64,000 nucleotides of DNA from Acidimicrobiia bacterium (GCA_965204615.1 OZ242000.1:1281803-1345802); one strand, 5' to 3'. Numbered from the stretch's first letter, positions 6,437 through 57,203 are shown. Notes: a model not told the origin generated them from the letters alone. Translations and numbers: made by a program.

Positions 6437-7990
6437 ATGAATCGATTTGAACGCAATCGCCAGACCGTCCGGCCTCCCTCAACCGTCGACATCGAAGAAA
6501 TAGCGGCTCTGGACGGGATCGAACTCGCCGACTCGGAGGCCGAGGACCTGTCGGGCATCATCACCGCCCTGGTGATGGCGGCCGGGGAGGCCGACCGGTT
6601 CCAGCCGCCGGATGTATCCACCTTCGCGACTTCCCGCGATGCCGGTCGGCGGCCGTCCGCGGGAGAGGACCCGCTGAACGCCTTCATCCGGATGTGCGAG
6701 GTGGCGGGCGCCGAGGATGGCCCCCTGGCCGGTTGGCGCCTGGGGGTGAAGGACAACATCGCGGTGGCCGGCGTGCCGATGACCAACGGATCCGCCCTGA
6801 CCCCGTTCACCCCCACGCTGGACTCGGTGGTCGCCGAAAGGATCCTCAAGGCGGGGGGCTCGATCGTGGGGACGCTCAACATGGACGACCACGGCGGAGG
6901 AGCAACGGGGGTGATGAGCGCCTTCGGTCCGGCGAGGAACCCGCTCGACCCGTCGCGCACCGCGGGAGGGTCTTCGGGAGGGGCGGGCTCGGCGGTTGCG
7001 TCGGGCGCGGTCGATGCGGCTCTGGGAGTGGACCAGGGGGGCAGCGGGCGCATACCCGCCGCGTGCTGCGGCGTGGCGACCATCAAGGCCACTCACGGCC
7101 TGATCCCCACATTCGGGGTGACCCCGATAGACCACTCGATCGACTACGTGACGCCCCTCGCACGGTCGGTGCGGGAAGTCGCCATCCTGTTGGAGGTGAT
7201 CGCCGGAGACGACTGGCGCGACCCCCAGGGGATCCACATTCCCATCGAGATCCCCCACTACCGACGGGCCGAGGAGGACGGCGTCTCGGGGCTGCGGGTA
7301 GCGGTGATCGAAGAGAGCATCACGGGCGTCGAATGCGAACCGGTGGTCGTCGAGACGATCGATGAGGCGGTCGGTGCACTTGAGCAGGCCGGCGCGCGCG
7401 TCGAGCGGATCTCGGCGCCCATGTGGAGCGACGCCTCTGCCATATTCGGCCCTTACGTGGCCCACCTGGTGGGCAACATGGTGCGGACCGAGGGCGGCAG
7501 CCACGGGCACATGGGATACATCGATGCCGAGCGGATGCATGCCTTCGCCACCGGCAGGCGCGCCCAGGCCCGGGAGTTGAACCCCTACGTCAAGTGCTGG
7601 ACCATCGCCAGCAGGTATCTGATGGAGCGGTACATGAACGTCCCGTTCGGGCGGTTGCACAATGCGCGGCTGGAGTCGCGCCGGGGCATCAGCGAGCTTC
7701 TGGATGCCTGGGACCTGCTGATCACGCCGACCATCCCCTTTGTGGCGCCCAGGTTGCCCGCGGTCCCCACTCCCCTGCCGGACCTGTTGGCGGACTCGAA
7801 AGCCTCGGTGGCGTTCAACACCTCGCCGCTCAACATGTCCGGCCATCCGGCGGCGGCGGTGCCCGGTCTTTACGACGCTGACGGTCTTCCCGCCTCGGTG
7901 CAGATCGTTGCCTCCCACTTCGACGAGTACACGGCTTTGCGGGCCGCTTTCGTGCTGGAGGACTACTTCTCGGGGCGCAAGCCCCAATAG
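6437..7990 (+). CDS. amidase (amidase-signature family)
   Basis: GGSSGG amidase signature, catalytic GVKDN and GGS motifs; ATG at 6437 (ORF frame opens at TTG 6425); unusual ~80-aa N-terminal extension. Confidence 0.8.
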   Translation: MNRFERNRQTVRPPSTVDIEEIAALDGIELADSEAEDLSGIITALVMAAGEADRFQPPDVSTFATSRDAGRRPSAGEDPLNAFIRMCEVAGAEDGPLAGWRLGVKDNIAVAGVPMTNGSALTPFTPTLDSVVAERILKAGGSIVGTLNMDDHGGGATGVMSAFGPARNPLDPSRTAGGSSGGAGSAVASGAVDAALGVDQGGSGRIPAACCGVATIKATHGLIPTFGVTPIDHSIDYVTPLARSVREVAILLEVIAGDDWRDPQGIHIPIEIPHYRRAEEDGVSGLRVAVIEESITGVECEPVVVETIDEAVGALEQAGARVERISAPMWSDASAIFGPYVAHLVGNMVRTEGGSHGHMGYIDAERMHAFATGRRAQARELNPYVKCWTIASRYLMERYMNVPFGRLHNARLESRRGISELLDAWDLLITPTIPFVAPRLPAVPTPLPDLLADSKASVAFNTSPLNMSGHPAAAVPGLYDADGLPASVQIVASHFDEYTALRAAFVLEDYFSGRKPQ

Positions 7991-22874: not shown

Positions 22875-23999
22875 AAGGGGCAGGGCTCCTCTCCACAGCT
22901 AGGAAATGTGACAATCCCTTAGCTTGGAGAGAGCCCTACCCAACAACGGGCATTTACCCCCAGGAGGTGGGAACTTTCAGTGATCGAGACTGGGAACTTT
23001 CAGTGATCGCCAACAGCGTGAAGAGGTTCTGCGCATCGGTGTACGTCACTGCAGAGGCTCCAAGCGGCAGGTACTCGGACCAACGGGCCAGCGAGACAAA
23101 GGTGTCCACATAGGGCTGGTCCGTGAACTTGGCAGAGCCGTCAATCAGGGCCGTTCGACCTGCTTCACCATCCCAATAGTTGGGGCCAATGTTCTGGAAC
23201 CCCATGGTGGCGGCTTCCCACAAATCGGCGGTTCCCATACCGAGCGGTACGTAGGAGCCTTCCGCGGCTATCGCTTCCAAGACTTCGAAGAACTCATCTT
23301 CCGTCTGAGGTACCGCAAGACCAAGCTCGTCGAACGCTTCGACATTGTAGATAAAGCCGTGTATGACCGAGGCCATAGGTACACAGAAAGGTGTTGAGCC
23401 ATCATCAGTGATCCAGGCGCTTTGAGCCACTGAGCTGAAGGTCTCGATACCGGGTAGATCATTCAGCGGGGCCAAGTGGCCCTGGTCGAAGAGTCCCAGT
23501 GAGGCATCAAAGGGACGACATGTTATCAGGTCACCGGCAGTGCCTCCCTCCAGCCGACTGGCCAGAGCGGCGTTGTATTCAGTTGGAGGAGAGGGATTGA
23601 ATTCCACGTCGATATTGGGGAACTCCGCTTCGAATGCCGGGATGATCTGGTCATTCCAAATAGCCAAGTCATCATTTCTCCAGCTTTCGATGGTGATGGT
23701 CACCGGCTCATCCGCCGCGGGAGCGGCAGTCGTGGCCGGAGCAGCGGTCGTGGCCGGAGCAGCGGTCGTGGCGGGAGCGGCGGTCGTGGCCGGAGCAGCT
23801 TCTTCTCCGCTGTCTCCACATGCTGCAGCCAACAGCATTATTCCTATCAAAACAGCAATCCGCCTGCCAATTTTCAGCATATGCTCTTCTCCTTTTACTC
23901 TTGACCCCAAGGGGGTCGCTTACATGTGCGAAGCTGGAACTGCTGCGTCAAAGCCAATGCACACACCAAGTTCCCAACTTCTCCGCGGGAGTGGCCACA

Positions 24000-33505: not shown

Positions 33506-35140
33506 TCAGGAGGACCGGGCTTGGGCGGCCAGGAGTTTGCGGTTCAGCTTGCCGGTTGAAGTCTTGGGCAGGTTCTCCACGTACTCGACCATGCGGGGGT
33601 ACTTGTAGGCGGCCAGTTGGGTCTTGACCTGGGCCTGGAGTTCCGCGGTCAGATCATCTCCCGGCCGGTGACCATCGGCGAGCACCACCATCGCTTTGAC
33701 CACATGGCCCCTGATCCGATCGGGAGCGGGGATGACCGCTACCTCTGCGACTGCGGCGTGGCGCACCAGGGACTCCTCGACCTCGGCAGGTCCGATGCGA
33801 TAGCCGGCACTGGCGATCATGTCGTCGTCGCGGCCCAGGAAGCGGATGTAGCCGTTGGCGTCCAGGGTGGCCTGGTCGCCGGTCATGATCCAACCGGCGC
33901 GGCGCATGCCCTCGGTTGCCGCCGGGTTGCCCCAGTACTCGAGCATCTGGGTGGGATCGCCGGGGCGCACCGCGATCTCGCCGATCTCGCCCGGGCTGAC
34001 TTCCTCCCCACTCTCGTCGAGCAGGGCCACATCCCGGCCCGGGTAGGGCAGTCCCATCCATCCGGGCCGGCCGGGCCACAACGCCTCGCATCCACCCACC
34101 AGATGGTTCACCTCGGTGAGCCCGTAGAACTCGTTGATGACGGCTCCCAGGTCCCGCTCGCTCCACCGGTGCAACTCGTCGGCCACCGACTCTCCGCCGC
34201 TGGCTATGACCCGGAGATCGAGATCGAACCGGGGACCGGGGTCGGGTACCTGCGCCATAACCTTGAGGGCCGTGGGCGTCAGGAAGGCATGGGTGACGCC
34301 GTTCCGACCGATCACCTCGAAGGCCCGTTCGGCGGAGAAGCGCTCCTCGTCGGCCACCACCGGGCGGCCGAAGACGAGGGCGGGCAGCAGAATGTCGAGG
34401 AGTCCTCCCACCCACGCCCAGTCGGACGGGGTGTAGAACACGGTGGACTCGTCGAACTCCACGTTGAAGAAGAGTTTGAAGGTGAGGAGGTACCCCTCCA
34501 GGATGCGGTGCGCATGGAGAGCCCCCTTGGGATGGCCCGTGCTGCCCGAGGTGTACAACAGCAGAGCCGGATCCTCCGACGACGTGTCGACCGGGTCGAA
34601 GTCTGCCGGGTAGCCGTCGGCTTCGGACAGCGACCGCTCGCCCTCTCCGGGCTGTCCCGAGATCACCACCGTACCCAGAGCCGGCAGATCGTCGCGCACC
34701 GATCGGATCGGATCTGCGTAGGCCTCCCCCACCACGATGACACTGGTCGCCGAGTCGGACAGGATGTGCCGGTAGGAGTCGGGACCGTACAGGATCGACA
34801 TGGGTAGGGCCACGGCGCCGACCGAATAGACCGCCAGATGGAGGGCTGCCAACTCAGCGCCCTGGTGCATCACCAGCGAGACCCGGTCTCCGGGCTGGAC
34901 TCCCAACGAGACCAGGAAGTTGGCGTAACGCTTCGCCAGCCTGATCAGGCGCCAGTAGGACCAGGTGTCCCGGCGCCCATCGGAGTGCTCAACATAGATG
35001 GCGACCCGGCCACGGGCGTCGCTCCAGCGGTCGAAAACCTCCGAGGCCATGTTCATCCGTTCGGGAATGTCCCATTGGAAGTCTCTCACCAGCGCCCGGT
35101 AGCCGCCGAAACCGAGCAGGTCCGAATCTGCAATTCGCAT
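33506..35140 (-). CDS. AMP-dependent synthetase/ligase (acyl-CoA synthetase family)
   Basis: 544 aa; AMP-binding motifs LLYTSGSTGHPKG, YGLTE, TGD…GY, and C-terminal PKTSTGKLNR. Confidence 0.85.
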   Translation of the reverse strand: MRIADSDLLGFGGYRALVRDFQWDIPERMNMASEVFDRWSDARGRVAIYVEHSDGRRDTWSYWRLIRLAKRYANFLVSLGVQPGDRVSLVMHQGAELAALHLAVYSVGAVALPMSILYGPDSYRHILSDSATSVIVVGEAYADPIRSVRDDLPALGTVVISGQPGEGERSLSEADGYPADFDPVDTSSEDPALLLYTSGSTGHPKGALHAHRILEGYLLTFKLFFNVEFDESTVFYTPSDWAWVGGLLDILLPALVFGRPVVADEERFSAERAFEVIGRNGVTHAFLTPTALKVMAQVPDPGPRFDLDLRVIASGGESVADELHRWSERDLGAVINEFYGLTEVNHLVGGCEALWPGRPGWMGLPYPGRDVALLDESGEEVSPGEIGEIAVRPGDPTQMLEYWGNPAATEGMRRAGWIMTGDQATLDANGYIRFLGRDDDMIASAGYRIGPAEVEESLVRHAAVAEVAVIPAPDRIRGHVVKAMVVLADGHRPGDDLTAELQAQVKTQLAAYKYPRMVEYVENLPKTSTGKLNRKLLAAQARSS

Positions 35141-35305
35141 TAGGGCGATTCTAGAGAACCGCCGGATAGCTCCTCACCAGGCCGAAGACGCGAAAACGAT
35201 CACTAAATCGCGAAATCCCGCCAAAGAACTTCGTCCGAAGGGCCCACCCCCGCCGCCACCACCGGTTGTGGGAGCGCGGGTGGGCCGGAGAGGCGTTTCG
35301 GGTCA
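35129..35305. repeat. copy 1 of a ~175-bp duplicated segment (promoter/leader plus first 5 codons of the acyl-CoA synthetase); copy 2 at 38479-38651
   Basis: Direct comparison by eye: the two copies align over ~175 bp with a handful of substitutions and two short indels; both contain TCGCGAAAACGATCACTAA(A/T)TCGCGAA and a GGCCCACCC…GGGTGGGCC hairpin. Confidence 0.8.
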
Positions 35306-35500
35306 CTCTCCCGGGTGGGGTGATATTCGAGATCTTCGCCGGTGCGCTGGCGCCTTTCGGGGTCGGCGCGGTTCAATACCTGATCCTATGCATGTGCTAC
35401 CAGCAGAATCTGAAGACTGTGGCGGCCATCACCGGCCTGGTCCCTCACGACGCCTCCACCATCAGCCGTACGGAAGGTCCGACCCGCATGGCCACGGTTG

Positions 35501-37528
35501 TTAACCGGTGTCCGGGACGACCTTGAACACGTTGTCGGAAATCTCGTCTTCTATGGGAGTGTTGCGTCGAATTATGTCGGCCAGAGCGGTGGTGCGAACT
35601 TCCTGCAGAAGGTCGGGGTTGGCCAGGAAGTACTGGTCATTCTCGAACCAGAAGCGATCTCCCTCGCGTAGGCGTTGGAACTGGTCCAAGATGATCGCGC
35701 GGAGAGTGGGTCCGACGGCCGCTCCAGGAACATGATCTTCCGCCAGTGCCCCCGCCCAGAGGTCCAATCTGTCTATCCTGCCGTACGCCAAAGCCAGGGC
35801 CTGCCCGACCCGCGACCGGGACGACACATCAGCAAGAGAGGCAAGCGGCGCCAGACCGTAAGCGCCGCGTACAGCATTGAAATCACCCAGTCCGTGATCC
35901 CTACTGCGCTGGATGTTCAGGGCAGCCAGATCAAACTGTGGACCGCCCGGTCCCCTCAGCAGCATGTTACGAACTTCGTCTATCACCATTGCATCCACTT
36001 CCTGAGCCTCTTGAGCGGCCAGTCCCCTCAGGAACGCGGAAACACCGCGCTCGGTAACGAAGGAAGGATTGAAGAATGCATCGGCAAGGCTGAGGGCCTC
36101 CGTGTCTCCGCCGCCACTGCGGATCAGGAGGTTGGGAGACAGCATGGTGTGTCCGACTCGAAAGGCCGCGGTTGAGAATTCGTTGGCGATGGTCGGATCA
36201 ACCCCCGGGTCGTATCCCGTATAGGGGTCTATGGCGTGGGGACCCAACAGCAGCGGCAGGAATTCGTTGAAGGTTATGGCTTGGATGTGAGCGCCGACCA
36301 TTTTGCGAGCCCGTTGGTAGATCTCTTCTCCGCTCAGTCCGGGAATCTGTTCGGCGAGGGCATCAGCGACGCGGTTGTGCTCTCGTACGAACAGGGTGTG
36401 CAAAGAGGTGAGCCCGACTTGCTCGTTGACCCGCACATCACCTGCAAGGAACAGATCTTCCCGATCCCTGCCTCCTTCGTTCTCCAGGTTGGCTTCGTTG
36501 TAGAGGAGGAACCGGCCCTGTTGTGATGTCTTCAGTTTTCCGGTGCCGTCGCGGGTACGGAGAGAGTGTGCCCGATGCCAATCCGAGCCGTACACTTGTG
36601 AACCGTCGATGAAGGCCGTGACAGTGTTCATCTGTCTCCTGGGATTGTCCGGACCGGTCCCGGTTGCAGGATCGAATGCAGAACGATCAAAACCGATCGC
36701 GCCCTCACCCGTTCCGTCGGGATCGAAAGCCGGATCCCATTGAGGAACTGCAATGGGCAGGGGCTCGGCGACGTTGGTGGGAGTGAGGCTGATGTCGTGG
36801 TCCAGGAATTGTCCCCACTGCCAGAACATGTCACTGAGCCGGAGGGAATTGGGCACGGGTCGGCTCTGGGCAAACACAGAGTTGCTCACCGCCCGGGGAT
36901 TCGGTCCCGAGGTTGGAGGGGTGGATACGCCGTCCGAATAGGAGGTCGGACCCTTACGCAGTAGACCTGTGCCCGCCATGCCCCAAGTGGGGTTGGATGT
37001 ATTGTTTCCCCGCCCGTCAATCGATCGAGGCTCCCAGGAATCCGGATACTCTTTCAGACTCAATGAGAGGGTCTCACCCGGTTGCCACTCCAAATCCACG
37101 CCAAACCATATGTAGTGTCGCGAATCCACCCTCCCGTCCACGAGATTGAGGACCTGATCGGGGAGGTGGAACCCCAGGCGCCCGAAGTTGTCCGGGAGAC
37201 CGGGTAAGAAGTAAATGCTCAGGTTCTTGGACTCCGGATTCGCCGTTTCCACCAGGACCACACCCGTCACGGTGTAGGACGCACCTTTCCATAGCAACTC
37301 CGTGTTGGAGAGGCCTCCGGCGCGTTGCTCGAGATACCCGATGAAACCTCCGTCGTCTCCCACTGTCAAAGCGGTTTCCCACACCGCATTCTCTTGAGGC
37401 GGTGAGTCACCTCCCGGCTGGGTTGGAGATGTGACTTCGACGGCCTGGCCTACGGACCCATAGAGAATGGACGTTGCCACGAGGCAAATAGCGACCACGA
37501 GCAGTCTCCCGGGCGAGAACCCCCTCAT
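35501..37528 (-). CDS. secreted animal-type heme peroxidase (peroxidase-cyclooxygenase superfamily) with ~170-aa N-terminal accessory domain
   Basis: Distal-His motif FWQWGQFLDHD, proximal-His region LFVREHNR, RSRDHG and RSIDGRGNNTSNPTWG motifs; signal peptide from ATG 37528 (MRGFSPGRLLVVAICLVATSILYG); ATG overlaps upstream stop (ATGA). Confidence 0.8.
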   Translation of the reverse strand: MRGFSPGRLLVVAICLVATSILYGSVGQAVEVTSPTQPGGDSPPQENAVWETALTVGDDGGFIGYLEQRAGGLSNTELLWKGASYTVTGVVLVETANPESKNLSIYFLPGLPDNFGRLGFHLPDQVLNLVDGRVDSRHYIWFGVDLEWQPGETLSLSLKEYPDSWEPRSIDGRGNNTSNPTWGMAGTGLLRKGPTSYSDGVSTPPTSGPNPRAVSNSVFAQSRPVPNSLRLSDMFWQWGQFLDHDISLTPTNVAEPLPIAVPQWDPAFDPDGTGEGAIGFDRSAFDPATGTGPDNPRRQMNTVTAFIDGSQVYGSDWHRAHSLRTRDGTGKLKTSQQGRFLLYNEANLENEGGRDREDLFLAGDVRVNEQVGLTSLHTLFVREHNRVADALAEQIPGLSGEEIYQRARKMVGAHIQAITFNEFLPLLLGPHAIDPYTGYDPGVDPTIANEFSTAAFRVGHTMLSPNLLIRSGGGDTEALSLADAFFNPSFVTERGVSAFLRGLAAQEAQEVDAMVIDEVRNMLLRGPGGPQFDLAALNIQRSRDHGLGDFNAVRGAYGLAPLASLADVSSRSRVGQALALAYGRIDRLDLWAGALAEDHVPGAAVGPTLRAIILDQFQRLREGDRFWFENDQYFLANPDLLQEVRTTALADIIRRNTPIEDEISDNVFKVVPDTG

Positions 37529-37911
37529 TTCGCAGACGAACCCGTACGCATACCAGAGTCGCAGAAAAATGTCTCTTGGCAATACCCGGCACTATCACCT
37601 TCGCAGAGGCCGTCGTAACAGGCCGCCTCGGCGTAGCGCCCCTGGCCGGCGACGCCACCGGTCCCCTCCGGCACACCGGTCAGCGTGACCTCAACCGCCG
37701 CGGCGTCATTCGATCCATGGTTCACCGCCTCGGTGGTGCAGGCGCCCCGGTTTCCGGTCGCCACTACTCGAAAGTCATACCCACCCACCCTTTCATCCTC
37801 CTCAATCCTCACAGCAAGGCTATGGGCCGGCGGTCGATGAAATCGCAGCCGGGCGTGGGCAGTGGGGCTGGAGGCCGCCGACGTTATGACGGTGGCGGCA
37901 ACCAGGAACAC
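37525..37911 (-). CDS. small secreted protein (128 aa) with C-terminal Cys cluster, translationally coupled to the heme peroxidase
   Basis: GTG start; hydrophobic N-terminus (MFLVAATVITSAASSPTAHA); C-terminus ACYDGLCEGDSAGYCQETFFCDSGMRTGSSAK; stop TGA overlaps peroxidase ATG. Confidence 0.45.
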   Translation of the reverse strand: MFLVAATVITSAASSPTAHARLRFHRPPAHSLAVRIEEDERVGGYDFRVVATGNRGACTTEAVNHGSNDAAAVEVTLTGVPEGTGGVAGQGRYAEAACYDGLCEGDSAGYCQETFFCDSGMRTGSSAK

Positions 37912-38478
37912 GAGCGAAACAACCTTGACATGCGCCTGCCGGGTCGTAGTCCCCGCCCAGGGGGGAGGGGGTACCCAACCACCTCAACCCCCCAAAACGA
38001 CTTGCAAGATAGAAACACCCCCCGTCGCCCGCGCCCGATAGGAACGGCCCGAAACCCGAGGGTGAAGAGCGCCCGTTCCAATGTTCTAGTGCGAATAATA
38101 ATCATTCTCAGGACAGCGTAACACAGACTCCATAGAACCAAGAACCTATTAACCCCATCTGTAATAGATCACTCTGCCCATCACCCCGCCAGTCGTAGAA
38201 AAACTGGCTGCCGGCATGGGCAAATCCCCCGGGAAGGTCAAACCCCGACGGTCCCCGCTCCCCTGCCCTACGCAACTCCCCAAAGGTGCAACCCTACCCC
38301 GCACCAACGATCAGAACCCATGCCGGCGGTCCCCAAGTGACCTCGTCCCATACTCCCCGACCTCCAAGAGAAGAAAACAGCGGAGACAGCCCAGACAGCA
38401 AAACTCTCCCCACTCCCACTCAACCGTTGGAGGAATGACAGTTCGGTCGTCGTAAGTAGAAGTCTTCGCAAGGAGACC

Positions 38479-38651
38479 ATCTGCAATTCGCGTTAGGGCG
38501 ACTCTAGAGAACCGCCGAGTAGCTCCCCACCAGGCTGAAGACGCGAAAACGATCACTAATTCGCGAACATCTCGGCAAAGAACTTCGCCCGACGGGCCCA
38601 CCCCCACCGGTTGTGGGAGCGCGGGTGGGCCGGGTGGCCGGAGAGGCGTTC
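38479..38651. repeat. copy 2 of the ~175-bp duplicated regulatory segment; ancestral start codon mutated ATG->ACG
   Basis: See copy 1; lies ~180 nt downstream of the FGE gene and ~570 nt upstream of the small-protein/peroxidase operon on the same strand. Confidence 0.8.
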
Positions 38652-38831
38652 TCCACCGAAGATATGACATCTCGGCCCGGGTGACGTCGGGGCGGGCCGG
38701 GTTGTGTTCGGCTTTTTCAATGTGTATCGGGCCGGTGACAGAATCAACCTGGTATCAAGGGTTTTCTTCGCGGATTGCTCGGACATGGCTCGGCAGGGGG
38801 CGGGACATTCTTGGGGCGCACTTGATTGCTC

Positions 38832-39734
38832 CTAGGGCTTGGAGCGGGAAATGCAGCGGAAGCCGATGTGGGTGGTGGAGGTGTCGACGGTCTGCGACTG
38901 GCGGGCGGCGGGCCGGTATCTGAAGCAGTACTGGATGGTGCAGAGGTGCGAACCGCCCTTGATCACCCGGGTGGGCGCCGGGTCTTCGCCGGGGGTCTGC
39001 GGGGCACAGCACGGGGATGCCGGAGGTCCGGCCGAAGGGAGCCGGTAGGGGTCGGAGGTCCACTCCCACACGTTGCCGGCCATGTCGTGGAGGCCGTGAC
39101 CGTTGGGAGGGAAGGCGCCGACCGGGCTGGTGTAGGCCCAGCGGTCCAGTTTGGTGTTCTCGTAGGGGAACCGGCCCTGCCAGGTGTTGGCCAGGGGGGC
39201 GGTCTCCTGCGGATCGTCATCGCCCCAGGTGAACTCGGCGCCCTCCAGGCCTCCCCGGGAGGCGTACTCCCATTCGGCTTCGGCGGGTAGCTCCATGCCG
39301 GCCCAGCGTGCGTAGCTCTCCGCGTCCCGGTAGGCGACGTGAACCACCGGATGCTCCTCGAGACCCTCCAGGGAGGATCCCGGTCCGCGGGGATGGCGCC
39401 AGTCGGCGCCCGGGGTCCATGCCCACCAGCGCCAGAACTCCCCCGGGTTCACCGGACCGGGGGTCATCGTGAAGACCAGCGATCCCGGAACCAGGTCCTC
39501 GGGTCGGGCGTCGGGGTAGGAAGCGGCGTCGGGAGGCCGCTCCGCCACGGTCACATGGCCGGTGGCCTCGACGAACCGCCGGAACTGGCGGTTGGTGACC
39601 GGGTGAACATCGATCGCGAACGGCCCGACGGTGACCGTCCGGGCCGGGCTCTCTTCGGGATAGTGGTGATCCGACCCCATCGAGAACCCACCGCCCGGGA
39701 GCCACACCTGGGAGTGGTCGGGTGAAGTTATCAT
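38832..39734 (-). CDS. formylglycine-generating enzyme (FGE/SUMF1 family)
   Basis: 300 aa; near-colinear with the mycobacterial FGE pattern (LPGGGFSMGS, VTNRQFRRFVEATGH, GNVWEWT, KGGSHLC, YCFRYRPAAR). Confidence 0.85.
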   Translation of the reverse strand: MITSPDHSQVWLPGGGFSMGSDHHYPEESPARTVTVGPFAIDVHPVTNRQFRRFVEATGHVTVAERPPDAASYPDARPEDLVPGSLVFTMTPGPVNPGEFWRWWAWTPGADWRHPRGPGSSLEGLEEHPVVHVAYRDAESYARWAGMELPAEAEWEYASRGGLEGAEFTWGDDDPQETAPLANTWQGRFPYENTKLDRWAYTSPVGAFPPNGHGLHDMAGNVWEWTSDPYRLPSAGPPASPCCAPQTPGEDPAPTRVIKGGSHLCTIQYCFRYRPAARQSQTVDTSTTHIGFRCISRSKP

Positions 39735-56741: not shown

Positions 56742-57203
56742 ATGTCGGGCATGGAGGTGACGATCAGCCTGTTCGGTTTCTTGGCTCTCACCCAGTTGTT
56801 CACGATCGGCCTGCTGTGGCGAACCAATCTCCACATCCATGCCCGACTCGACGCCGTGGCCGCCGAACTGAGAGCGGAAGTACGCGCCTTAGCCGGCGAA
56901 ATGCGAAACGAATTCCGACGTGTGGACCAACGGCTCGGCAAGATGGAGCACAGGCTCGGTAACGTGGAAAACCGGCTCGACAATGTGGAAACCCGGCTCG
57001 GTAACGTAGAAAACCGGCTCGACAATGTGGAAACCCGGCTCGGTAACGTAGAAAACCGGCTCGGTGACGTGGAGAACCGGCTCGGTGACGTGGAAACCCG
57101 GCTCGATAACGTGGAATACCGCCTCGGTGATGTGGAACAGACAGTCAGCCAGATGGGACAGAGGCTCAGCCGAGTTGAGGAACCCTCCGCCATCAAGGTC
57201 TGA
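56742..57203 (+). CDS. membrane-anchored coiled-coil protein with nine tandem heptads RL(G/D)(N/D)VE(N/T)
   Basis: ATG 56742 with AAAGGA RBS; single N-terminal TM helix (VTISLFGFLALTQLFTIGLLW); AT-richer than surroundings; heptads encoded by 21-bp tandem DNA repeats. Confidence 0.6.
   Translation: MSGMEVTISLFGFLALTQLFTIGLLWRTNLHIHARLDAVAAELRAEVRALAGEMRNEFRRVDQRLGKMEHRLGNVENRLDNVETRLGNVENRLDNVETRLGNVENRLGDVENRLGDVETRLDNVEYRLGDVEQTVSQMGQRLSRVEEPSAIKV
56952..57140 (+). repeat. 9 x 21-bp near-perfect in-frame tandem repeat (CGGCTCGGTAACGTGGAAAAC consensus)
   Basis: Read directly; units differ by 1-4 substitutions. Confidence 0.9.

Follow-up and report, generated by a model that had tools for sequence, protein, structure and literature searches.

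A direct repeat of an acyl-CoA synthetase promoter segment around a peroxidase-gene insert in sponge-associated Acidimicrobiia

Two copies of the ACS promoter segment bracket a lineage-specific insert

We analyzed a 64,000-nucleotide stretch of the genome of an Acidimicrobiia bacterium (GCA_965204615.1 OZ242000.1:1281803-1345802; hereafter, the window) in which a segment of ~172 bp, comprising the promoter and first codons of a gene for an acyl-CoA synthetase (ACS), occurs twice: once at the 5′ end of ACS itself (copy 1), and once on the far side of a 3.18-kb insert that carries a peroxidase gene (copy 2). We assign a probability of roughly 60% to the reading that this arrangement is the scar of a lineage-specific rearrangement with a decaying pseudo-promoter, rather than a case of promoter capture or a mobile repeat.

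The two copies form a direct repeat on the minus strand, which is the coding strand of ACS, the peroxidase gene, a small open reading frame (ORF) that precedes it, and the FGE-sulfatase-domain gene (FGE) beyond copy 2 (Table 1). A blastn comparison aligned positions 35126-35288 with 38479-38633 at 87.2% identity over 164 columns, with 11 mismatches and 2 gap openings (E=5e-54); homology resumes past an 8-bp indel and continues up to AACGCCTCTCC, which sets the full ends of the copies. Three indels (9 bp, 8 bp and 1 bp) separate the copies in addition to the 11 substitutions, and the ungapped blocks found by a repeat search are 92%, 88% and 94% identical. The duplication had been proposed by an earlier reading of the DNA (the original prediction); pairwise alignment and blastn establish it as a true repeat at matching coordinates, and the similarity is strong, but the description of the copies as near-identical was overstated. 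Searching with each copy by blastn detected no third copy in the window, the next best match having an E-value of at least 0.018.

Most of the predicted layout also held. Copy 1 includes the codons ATG CGA ATT GCA GAT (MRIAD) that begin the 544-aa AMP-binding gene, whereas in copy 2 the start codon has been changed to ACG. Copy 2 lies upstream of the small ORF and the peroxidase gene, on the same strand; 568 nt separate its end from the small ORF, close to the ~570 nt first given, and Pfam matches agree with the earlier description of the peroxidase, small-ORF and FGE neighbours. Copy 1 starts 195 nt past the peroxidase stop codon and copy 2 starts 180 nt past the FGE stop codon, so the similar gaps that had been pointed out have the right lengths; their likeness is nonetheless coincidental, the first being a MarR gene fragment and the second the 5′ part of a conserved spacer module.

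Homologs of ACS place the window among sponge-associated Acidimicrobiia, the best genome match being 95%. We compared the window with 21 orthologous loci from such bacteria that lack the insert and in which ACS is 80-97% identical. In 20 of these, the gene immediately upstream of ACS is FGE; the remaining locus (L022) has no FGE in range. None of the 21 has a peroxidase gene beside ACS, and each has at most one unit adjoining ACS. The only spacer of the closest relative, L001, matches in order copy 2 with its flank towards FGE, and then copy 1 with ACS; therefore, both copies lie in ancestral flanks, and the intervening 3.18 kb are the novelty. Collinearity of both copies with the single FGE-ACS spacer of the relatives likewise bears out the view that the unit is a duplicated ACS promoter and 5′ end.

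The insert is known only from this strain and from two sister-strain contigs. One of these (L007) contains the peroxidase gene, the tail that follows it, copy 1 and ACS, and shares the copy 1 junction with the window; the other (L188) contains copy 2, the junction, the leader and the peroxidase gene, and shares the copy 2 junction. Noncoding divergence between the window and L188 is ~5%, the two copies differ by ~7% substitutions, and the window and L001 spacers differ by 9-15%, values that are coherent with an event that probably postdates the divergence of the L001 lineage and predates the separation from the L007/L188 strain.

Separately, two of the relatives (L013 7023-7700 and L016 7011-7700) have an FGE-ACS spacer that is ~640 bp larger just past FGE, and the extra sequence is common to both.

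Copy 1 retains a conserved promoter design, and copy 2 appears to be decaying

Copy 1 is likely to be the working ACS promoter, as no conserved promoter feature is missing from it. Most of the 22 aligned orthologous loci have a TAnnnT hexamer followed by 7 nt and ATG (9 nt in L021-L023, and GTG in L022), with TAGAAT, TACAAT, TAATAT and similar variants of the hexamer. No Shine-Dalgarno sequence precedes the ACS ATG, the CGCCCTA spacer being free of any purine-rich stretch. The ACS promoter is thus predicted to be of leaderless design, with transcription starting at the A of the ATG. A map of transcription start sites in M. tuberculosis showed TANNNT −10 elements centred 7-12 bp before the start (PMC3898074), and the copy 1 hexamer falls within that range. 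Copy 1 resembles the leaderless sigma-A-type promoters of actinobacteria (PMC3898074) in its TANNNT −10, in having neither a recognisable −35 nor a Shine-Dalgarno sequence, and in the placement of the start codon at the predicted +1. It differs from them in that its host belongs to the Acidimicrobiia, and in having a pair of TTTCGCGA boxes that are absent from the described promoter. We found no experimental promoter data for the class Acidimicrobiia in the literature; a leaderless architecture that appears well supported by sequence comparison in this class is one by-product of the analysis.

The paired boxes lie at about −77 to −70 and −56 to −49 relative to the A of the ATG. Across the 22 aligned loci they are spaced 21-22 bp apart with a conserved TAG between them, and a G-rich arm, GGTGGTGGCGGCGGGGGNGGGCCC, is a third conserved feature. 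Almost every ortholog that has a long spacer keeps both boxes; in L018 and L020, box 2 is degenerate. The candidate operator of the original prediction, two palindromic half-sites, does contain conserved sites, but these are better described as two direct TTTCGCGA boxes. A 9-bp hairpin (GGCCCACCC/GGGTGGGCC) that had been noted in both copies occurs in the window, L001 and L007, but is specific to this lineage rather than a conserved structure at that position. The motif TTCGCGA is not by itself enriched in the window (10 found, 9.2 expected); hence, the case for a cis-element rests on the footprint among orthologs and on recurrence elsewhere. A literature search with the box motif gave only primers and unrelated sequences. 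In L014, an IS481-family element (~6880-7935) is inserted at a CTAG site precisely between the paired TTTCGCGA boxes and is accompanied by a short TCTAG duplication.

The differences between the copies were polarised against L001 and L012, and 10 orthologs served to score conservation. Copy 2 carries four derived changes in promoter features: a 9-bp deletion in the G-rich arm, which is nearly invariant across the 10 orthologs; a T-to-G change in the first base of box 1; an A-to-G change at position 5 of the −10 hexamer, a position that is invariant in the orthologs; and a T-to-C change in the start codon. By contrast, the lineage-specific changes in copy 1 fall almost only in variable, poorly conserved columns. 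Over both strains, substitutions in columns conserved in at least 9 of 10 orthologs made up 5 of 10 in the copy 2 lineage and 1 of 15 in the copy 1 lineage (Fisher one-sided p=0.023; about 0.04, calculated by hand, when two indels are counted as events). Copy 2 of L188 has the same deletion and the same TAGAGT hexamer, retains the ATG, and has TTCTCGCGA as box 1 where the window has GTTCGCGA. Together, these changes suggest that copy 2 is a decaying relic of the promoter.

Table 1. Positions of the repeat copies, the insert and neighbouring features in the window.
Feature	Position	Strand	Description and evidence
ACS	33506-35140	-	AMP-binding acyl/acetate-CoA ligase, 544 aa; Pfam PF00501, PF13193
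Copy 1	35126-35298	-	3′ third of spacer module (profile positions 170-342), twin boxes, core promoter, ACS codons 1-5; blastn, alignments, nhmmer profile match 35300-35138
−10 hexamer TAGAAT (copy 1)	35148-35153	-	7-nt spacer 35141-35147, ATG 35138-35140
Twin direct boxes (copy 1)	35189-35215	-	TTTCGCGA 35208-35215, TAG, TTTTCGCG 35189-35196
MarR-family gene, internal fragment	35300-35468	+	~aa 25-83 of ~155, cut at both ends; phmmer, Pfam MarR/MarR_2/HTH_27
Animal-haem-peroxidase family gene	35501-37528	-	675 aa, signal peptide, main cargo; Pfam PF03098, E=1.9e-155
Small ORF	37525-37911	-	Collapsed remnant (signal peptide and C-terminal piece) of ~686-aa secreted-protein gene
Cassette leader	37912-38290	-	Fur-like near-palindrome TGAGAATGATTATTATTCGCA at 38090-38110
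Junction filler	38291-38478	-	~190 nt between copy 2 and leader
Copy 2	38479-38650	-	Contiguous with FGE-side spacer; −10 TAGAGT 38501-38506, ACG 38491-38493, box 1 GTTCGCGA 38561-38568, box 2 intact 38542-38549, 9-bp deletion in G-rich arm
5′ part of spacer module, not duplicated	38651-38796	-	nhmmer match 38796-38492, alignments
Hairpin P1	38673-38699	-	CCGACGTC loop; module 5′ part; covariation
Promoter-like pair in module 5′ part	TTGATT 38742-38747; CACATT 38719-38724	-	17 nt between the two
Inverted box CGCGAAGAAAA	38762-38772	-	Module 5′ part
FGE-sulfatase-domain gene	38832-39734	-	Conserved upstream neighbour of ACS; Pfam PF03781

The insert carries a peroxidase gene with a conserved leader of its own

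The insert consists of both truncated and intact pieces: part of a MarR gene, the gene for the peroxidase, the collapsed remains of a secreted-protein gene, and a leader that includes a Fur-like box. The GC content of the insert is 0.57-0.62, as compared with 0.65-0.72 in the flanks (ACS, FGE and NuoG). Homologs of the peroxidase are 97%, 82%, 73% and 70% identical, and those at or below 82% lie in other genomic contexts. The ACS protein scores below every NCBIfam equivalog cut-off.

The MarR fragment fills the 195-nt tail between the peroxidase stop codon and copy 1, on the opposite strand. A phmmer search against 1.8 billion representatives matched it to P0242, at 72% identity. The intact gene for P0242 in L184 is 85.8% identical to the fragment at the nucleotide level, a value similar to that of the surrounding core genes, and lies between FGGY/p180 and NuoG, that is, in the same neighbourhood. 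We considered the MarR protein as the factor that binds the twin boxes, and found no support for this; upstream of the intact gene, the L184 sequence contains another palindrome and lacks TTTCGCGA.

The stop codon of the small ORF overlaps the peroxidase start codon (ATGA). An intact 686-aa protein in L001 matches the small ORF by tblastn only at aa 46-79 and 590-641. A further 205 bp, corresponding to window positions 37615-37819 inside this remnant, are deleted in L007 and L188; the gene is decaying, and the stretch is a presence/absence polymorphism within it.

The leader is conserved in L007, in L188, in L008, where the cassette has a different context, and in L001, where it lies upstream of a related secreted-protein gene. 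Its near-palindrome TGAGAATGATTATTATTCGCA is unique in the window, with 0 occurrences expected by chance, and is a perfect palindrome in L001. Operators of the Fur family have as their consensus a 19-21 bp palindrome of GATAAT-like hexamers, and TGAGAATGATTATTATTCGCA, a putative site, fits that form. Near-consensus Fur boxes (GATAATGATTATCATTAT) also occur upstream of a FecCD-type iron-transporter operon in L003 (13505-13525) and L002 (19983-20003), which supports the existence of a Fur-family regulon in this lineage.

The ~190 nt that join copy 2 to the leader have no DNA or translated match in the fetched loci (BLAST and tblastx) other than L188, from the sister strain. The ORFs and Pfam matches of the insert include no integrase, recombinase or transposase. 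ARAGORN found no tRNA or tmRNA in positions 25000-48000, and Rfam scans gave no match.

Origin of the duplication and fate of the second promoter copy

Under the favoured explanation, the last ~172 bp of the native FGE-ACS spacer would have been duplicated directly in this lineage alone. RNA polymerase would use the TAGAAT of copy 1 and start at the A of the ATG, giving a leaderless ACS mRNA, and the twin boxes, at about −77 to −49, would be the site of some regulator. Copy 2 would have been left behind by the rearrangement; it would be decaying, and may still fire weakly. In L188, transcription from copy 2 would yield a leaderless 117-aa junk ORF, the translation of which would be removed in the window by the ATG-to-ACG change. 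The peroxidase genes would be expressed from a metal-responsive, Fur-type promoter of their own in the conserved leader.

As to how the rearrangement arose, the simplest route would consist of two steps, a duplication and then deletion, in a neighbourhood that is very plastic. First, a segment would have been duplicated in tandem, running from the middle of the spacer module to about codon 25 of the convergent MarR gene, which would yield the exact junction between the truncated MarR gene and copy 1. Second, deletions would have removed the upstream copy of ACS and shrunk the remainder. We put this route, taken by itself, somewhat short of even odds.

Partial duplicates occur at several places in the same neighbourhood in other genomes. 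In L002 (12335-12508), L003 (5936-6109) and L026 (10335-10508), ACS is separated from the intact FGGY kinase gene by a stray fragment of the C-terminal part of that gene. A second copy of the spacer module, amounting to the whole spacer, lies between NuoG and NAD_binding_2 in L018 (5640-5954) and L024 (5480-5794), and the same site has a module in the opposite orientation in L005 (7891-8113, minus strand) and L025 (5881-6104, minus strand). The second copy in L018 seems to contain a degenerate version of the ACS promoter together with the first codons, and would be an independent duplication of the kind seen in the window. The neighbourhood is prone to partial duplication.

Several observations weigh against the favoured explanation or leave parts of it unaccounted for. 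The tandem route needs at least 2 further deletions, and the second cassette copy that it predicts downstream of ACS is absent; the unmatched ~190 nt after copy 2 are also left over. The enrichment of copy 2 substitutions in conserved columns is suggestive only, as p rises to about 0.09 (calculated by hand) without six copy 1 'substitutions' in a misaligned stretch near the 8-bp indel. In both the window and L188, copy 2 retains a TAnnnT hexamer (TAGAGT) and an intact box 2, and no convincing terminator lies between copy 2 and the peroxidase genes; therefore, some read-through is possible. Scans for E. coli-type promoters and terminators performed no better than on shuffled sequence, and are uninformative for this organism. 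Finally, the promoter activity of either copy is deduced from the DNA sequence.

A serious alternative for the origin, though one that we consider less likely than the tandem route, is that foreign or relocated DNA was inserted by illegitimate or homology-facilitated recombination; the functional reading of the two copies would be unchanged. In one version of this scenario, one end of the incoming DNA recombined within ACS or the unit, and the other joined illegitimately after ACS codon 5; in another, the insert is an eroded integrative element, with the promoter segment as its attachment region. Direct repeats (attL and attR) flank integrated genomic islands, and here too direct repeats of part of the target locus surround accessory DNA of distinct composition. 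The closest relatives of the cassette lie in other contexts (L008 and L009-L011), one of them beside an ISL3 transposase fragment, and the IS481-type element of L014 shows that the spacer takes insertions elsewhere. Against this, the insert has no integrase, recombinase or transposase, there is no tRNA or tmRNA target, and the 172-bp repeats include a protein-coding start, unlike those of attL/attR islands. Moreover, the MarR fragment is as close to L184 as the core genes are, and thus looks native, and identity to L001 drops nowhere in ACS, leaving no donor segment. The more specific idea of a donor-derived 5′ part of ACS, ending at a recombination breakpoint, was rejected, as identity to L001 is uniform at 94-99%.

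Functional promoter capture appears improbable. Here, copy 2 would be active and would place the peroxidase operon under the ACS regulator on top of Fur-type control, and the ATG-to-ACG change would be adaptive, stopping synthesis of a junk peptide. A precedent for capture is the Cit+ rnk-citT rearrangement of the E. coli long-term experiment, in which a tandem duplication reportedly captured a promoter, activated a silent gene and was selected for. As in that case, a segmental duplication has set a second promoter copy beside different genes, with direct repeats marking the segment; in contrast, the downstream genes in the window bring their own promoter, and the extra copy is degenerating. 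In favour of capture are the same-strand orientation of copy 2, its retained hexamer and box 2, and the absence of a strong terminator-like site before the operon; duplication is also a documented route to capture (PMC3575422). However, 9 bp are missing from the G-rich arm of copy 2, and substitutions have hit the first T of its box 1 as well as position 5 of its −10 hexamer; the box 1 lesions differ between the two strains, which looks like drift; 568 nt separate copy 2 from the first ORF; and in every context in which the cassette occurs, it is accompanied by a conserved leader and Fur-like box of its own. The suggestion in the original prediction that two transcription units share one cis-element is not supported, in view of the same facts: the peroxidase segment has its own conserved Fur-like leader (L008 and L001), and four features that rank among the most conserved of the promoter region are lost or damaged in copy 2, with independent lesions of box 1 in two strains.

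Transposition of a small non-autonomous element (MITE-like, or a 'mobile promoter') to a second site, also raised by the original prediction, is highly improbable: a larger ~300-nt module, of which the distal half of the unit is a part, does recur in the NuoG/NAD_binding_2 spacer in either orientation and in the unrelated contexts of L102, L181 and L162, and is bounded by an inverted pair, CGCGAAAAA...TTTTCGCG, but the 172-bp unit is just the 3′ part of the module plus ACS-specific promoter sequence and codons; both copies are in ancestral flanks, collinear with a single ancestral spacer, with only two copies in 64 kb; the unit has no terminal inverted repeats, the short inverted pair belonging to the larger module only; there is no target-site duplication, the copies being flanked by ancestral spacer or ACS on one side and by insert junctions on the other; and the module copies have diverged with compensatory changes, suggesting a conserved functional element and not recent transposition.

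A survey of putative mobile promoters (Matus-Garcia, Nijveen & van Passel 2012; PMC3575422) considered repeats with at least 80% identity over at least 50 nt in upstream non-coding DNA of unrelated genes. The repeat described here is similar in this respect (87% over 164 columns), but copy 2 falls beyond the −150 to −50 zone of the survey, the nearest ORF being 568 nt away; in addition, the repeat enters the ACS coding sequence, and the evidence points to a relic rather than to reuse.

Overall, the feature is ordinary in kind, an instance of genome reshuffling, but is well documented. It offers a clear and datable case of segmental rearrangement that left a spare promoter copy, and of the fate of that copy, with two strains at different stages of decay: the start codon has been lost in one, and box 1 has been altered differently in each. 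Its use is as a worked case, and it is not surprising.

The spacer module and the twin boxes in other contexts

A further by-product is a previously undescribed intergenic module of ~300 nt with predicted structure, the 3′ part of which is included in the duplicated unit. Besides the window, where the non-duplicated 5′ part and copy 2 together make up one module, copies are found at L015 7689-8003, L016 7705-8003, L181 967-1274 and L102 9540-9801, and a search with a profile of the spacer located the full module among different genes in L102, L181 and L162, all from sponge metagenomes. Along the module, an inverted CGCGAAAAA box and then TTGACT-N17-CAnAnT precede three hairpins: P1, whose loop is CCGACGUC; P2, which is variable; and, beyond AGAGAGGUCAUAU, P3, which has two tiers. 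The G-rich arm comes next, followed by box 1. P1 has compensatory pairs, for example CGGTCCG/CGGACCG, CGGCCCG/CGGGCCG and CGGCTCG/CGAGCCG, and its U·G wobbles point to the gene strand. In all 13 copies tested, sequences that differ from one another form a P3 stem-loop at the same place, mostly with two tiers, and its folding z-score is −2.8 or lower in 9 of the 13. These values are from folding of individual copies, which was used after RNAalifold on a MAFFT alignment gave a weak result (covariation term ~0), with variable stems out of register. The distal boundary of the duplicated unit falls inside the 5′ strand of P3, such that P3 is broken in copy 1.

Rfam contains no family that matches the window or the best-preserved module copies, the best scores being 9-22 bits where the family gathering thresholds are 50-93. 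No reading frame is conserved among the small ORFs of the module, which were inspected by eye on either strand. Judged from the compensatory changes and the folding of individual copies, the module is a conserved element of predicted structure that is absent from Rfam.

Intergenic repeats of the Correia, ERIC and REPIN types that carry promoters are named in the survey cited above (PMC3575422). The spacer module is like these in being a recurring intergenic unit of a few hundred nucleotides with inverted ends, internal hairpins and promoter-like sequence. It is unlike them in that no near-identical multi-copy family and no target duplications were seen, and in that its copies differ by compensatory changes, as those of a conserved structured RNA would.

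A more far-reaching proposal, which we regard as doubtful, is that the module is a new family of structured non-coding RNA of ~170-190 nt, with its own TTGACT-N17-CAnAnT promoter, three compensatory hairpins and an invariant G-rich 3′ arm, which would be confined to sponge-associated Acidimicrobiia and relocatable, with the twin TTTCGCGA boxes acting as a portable cassette for leaderless genes (YdeI-like and, more distally, pdxS). If so, the duplication in the window, like the whole-spacer duplicates of L018 and L024, would be a snapshot of the module and promoter spreading to new genes.

A final by-product is the recurrence of the twin boxes, a conserved candidate cis-element, ahead of unrelated genes that appear to be leaderless. 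Twin boxes that are not accompanied by the module (TTCGCGACATAGGATCAATTTTTCGCG) lie ~190 nt upstream of pdxS in L009 and L010 (8043-8069, minus strand), and pdxS in these loci is itself of leaderless design (TACGAT, 7 nt, ATG). In five metagenome contigs of ~60% GC (L099, L156, L159, L167 and L178; for example, L167 ~1690-1800, in box orientation), twin TTTTCGCGA boxes stand beside a canonical LexA box, TCGAAC-N4-GTTCG, which serves a divergent gene of ~300 aa; on the other side, the boxes are followed by TAnnnT, 7 nt and the GTG or ATG of a leaderless YdeI/OmdA-like gene.

Iteron-like tandem arrays of 20-22-bp units that start with TTTCGCGAAATAG are present in L110, L129, L131, L136, L137, L144, L147 and L163, which are unrelated contigs with 35-71% GC. 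The window itself contains two tandem repeats, both probably coding: one with a 21-nt period and ~10 or more copies at 56879-57172, and one with an 18-nt period and ~4-5 copies at 23717-23806.

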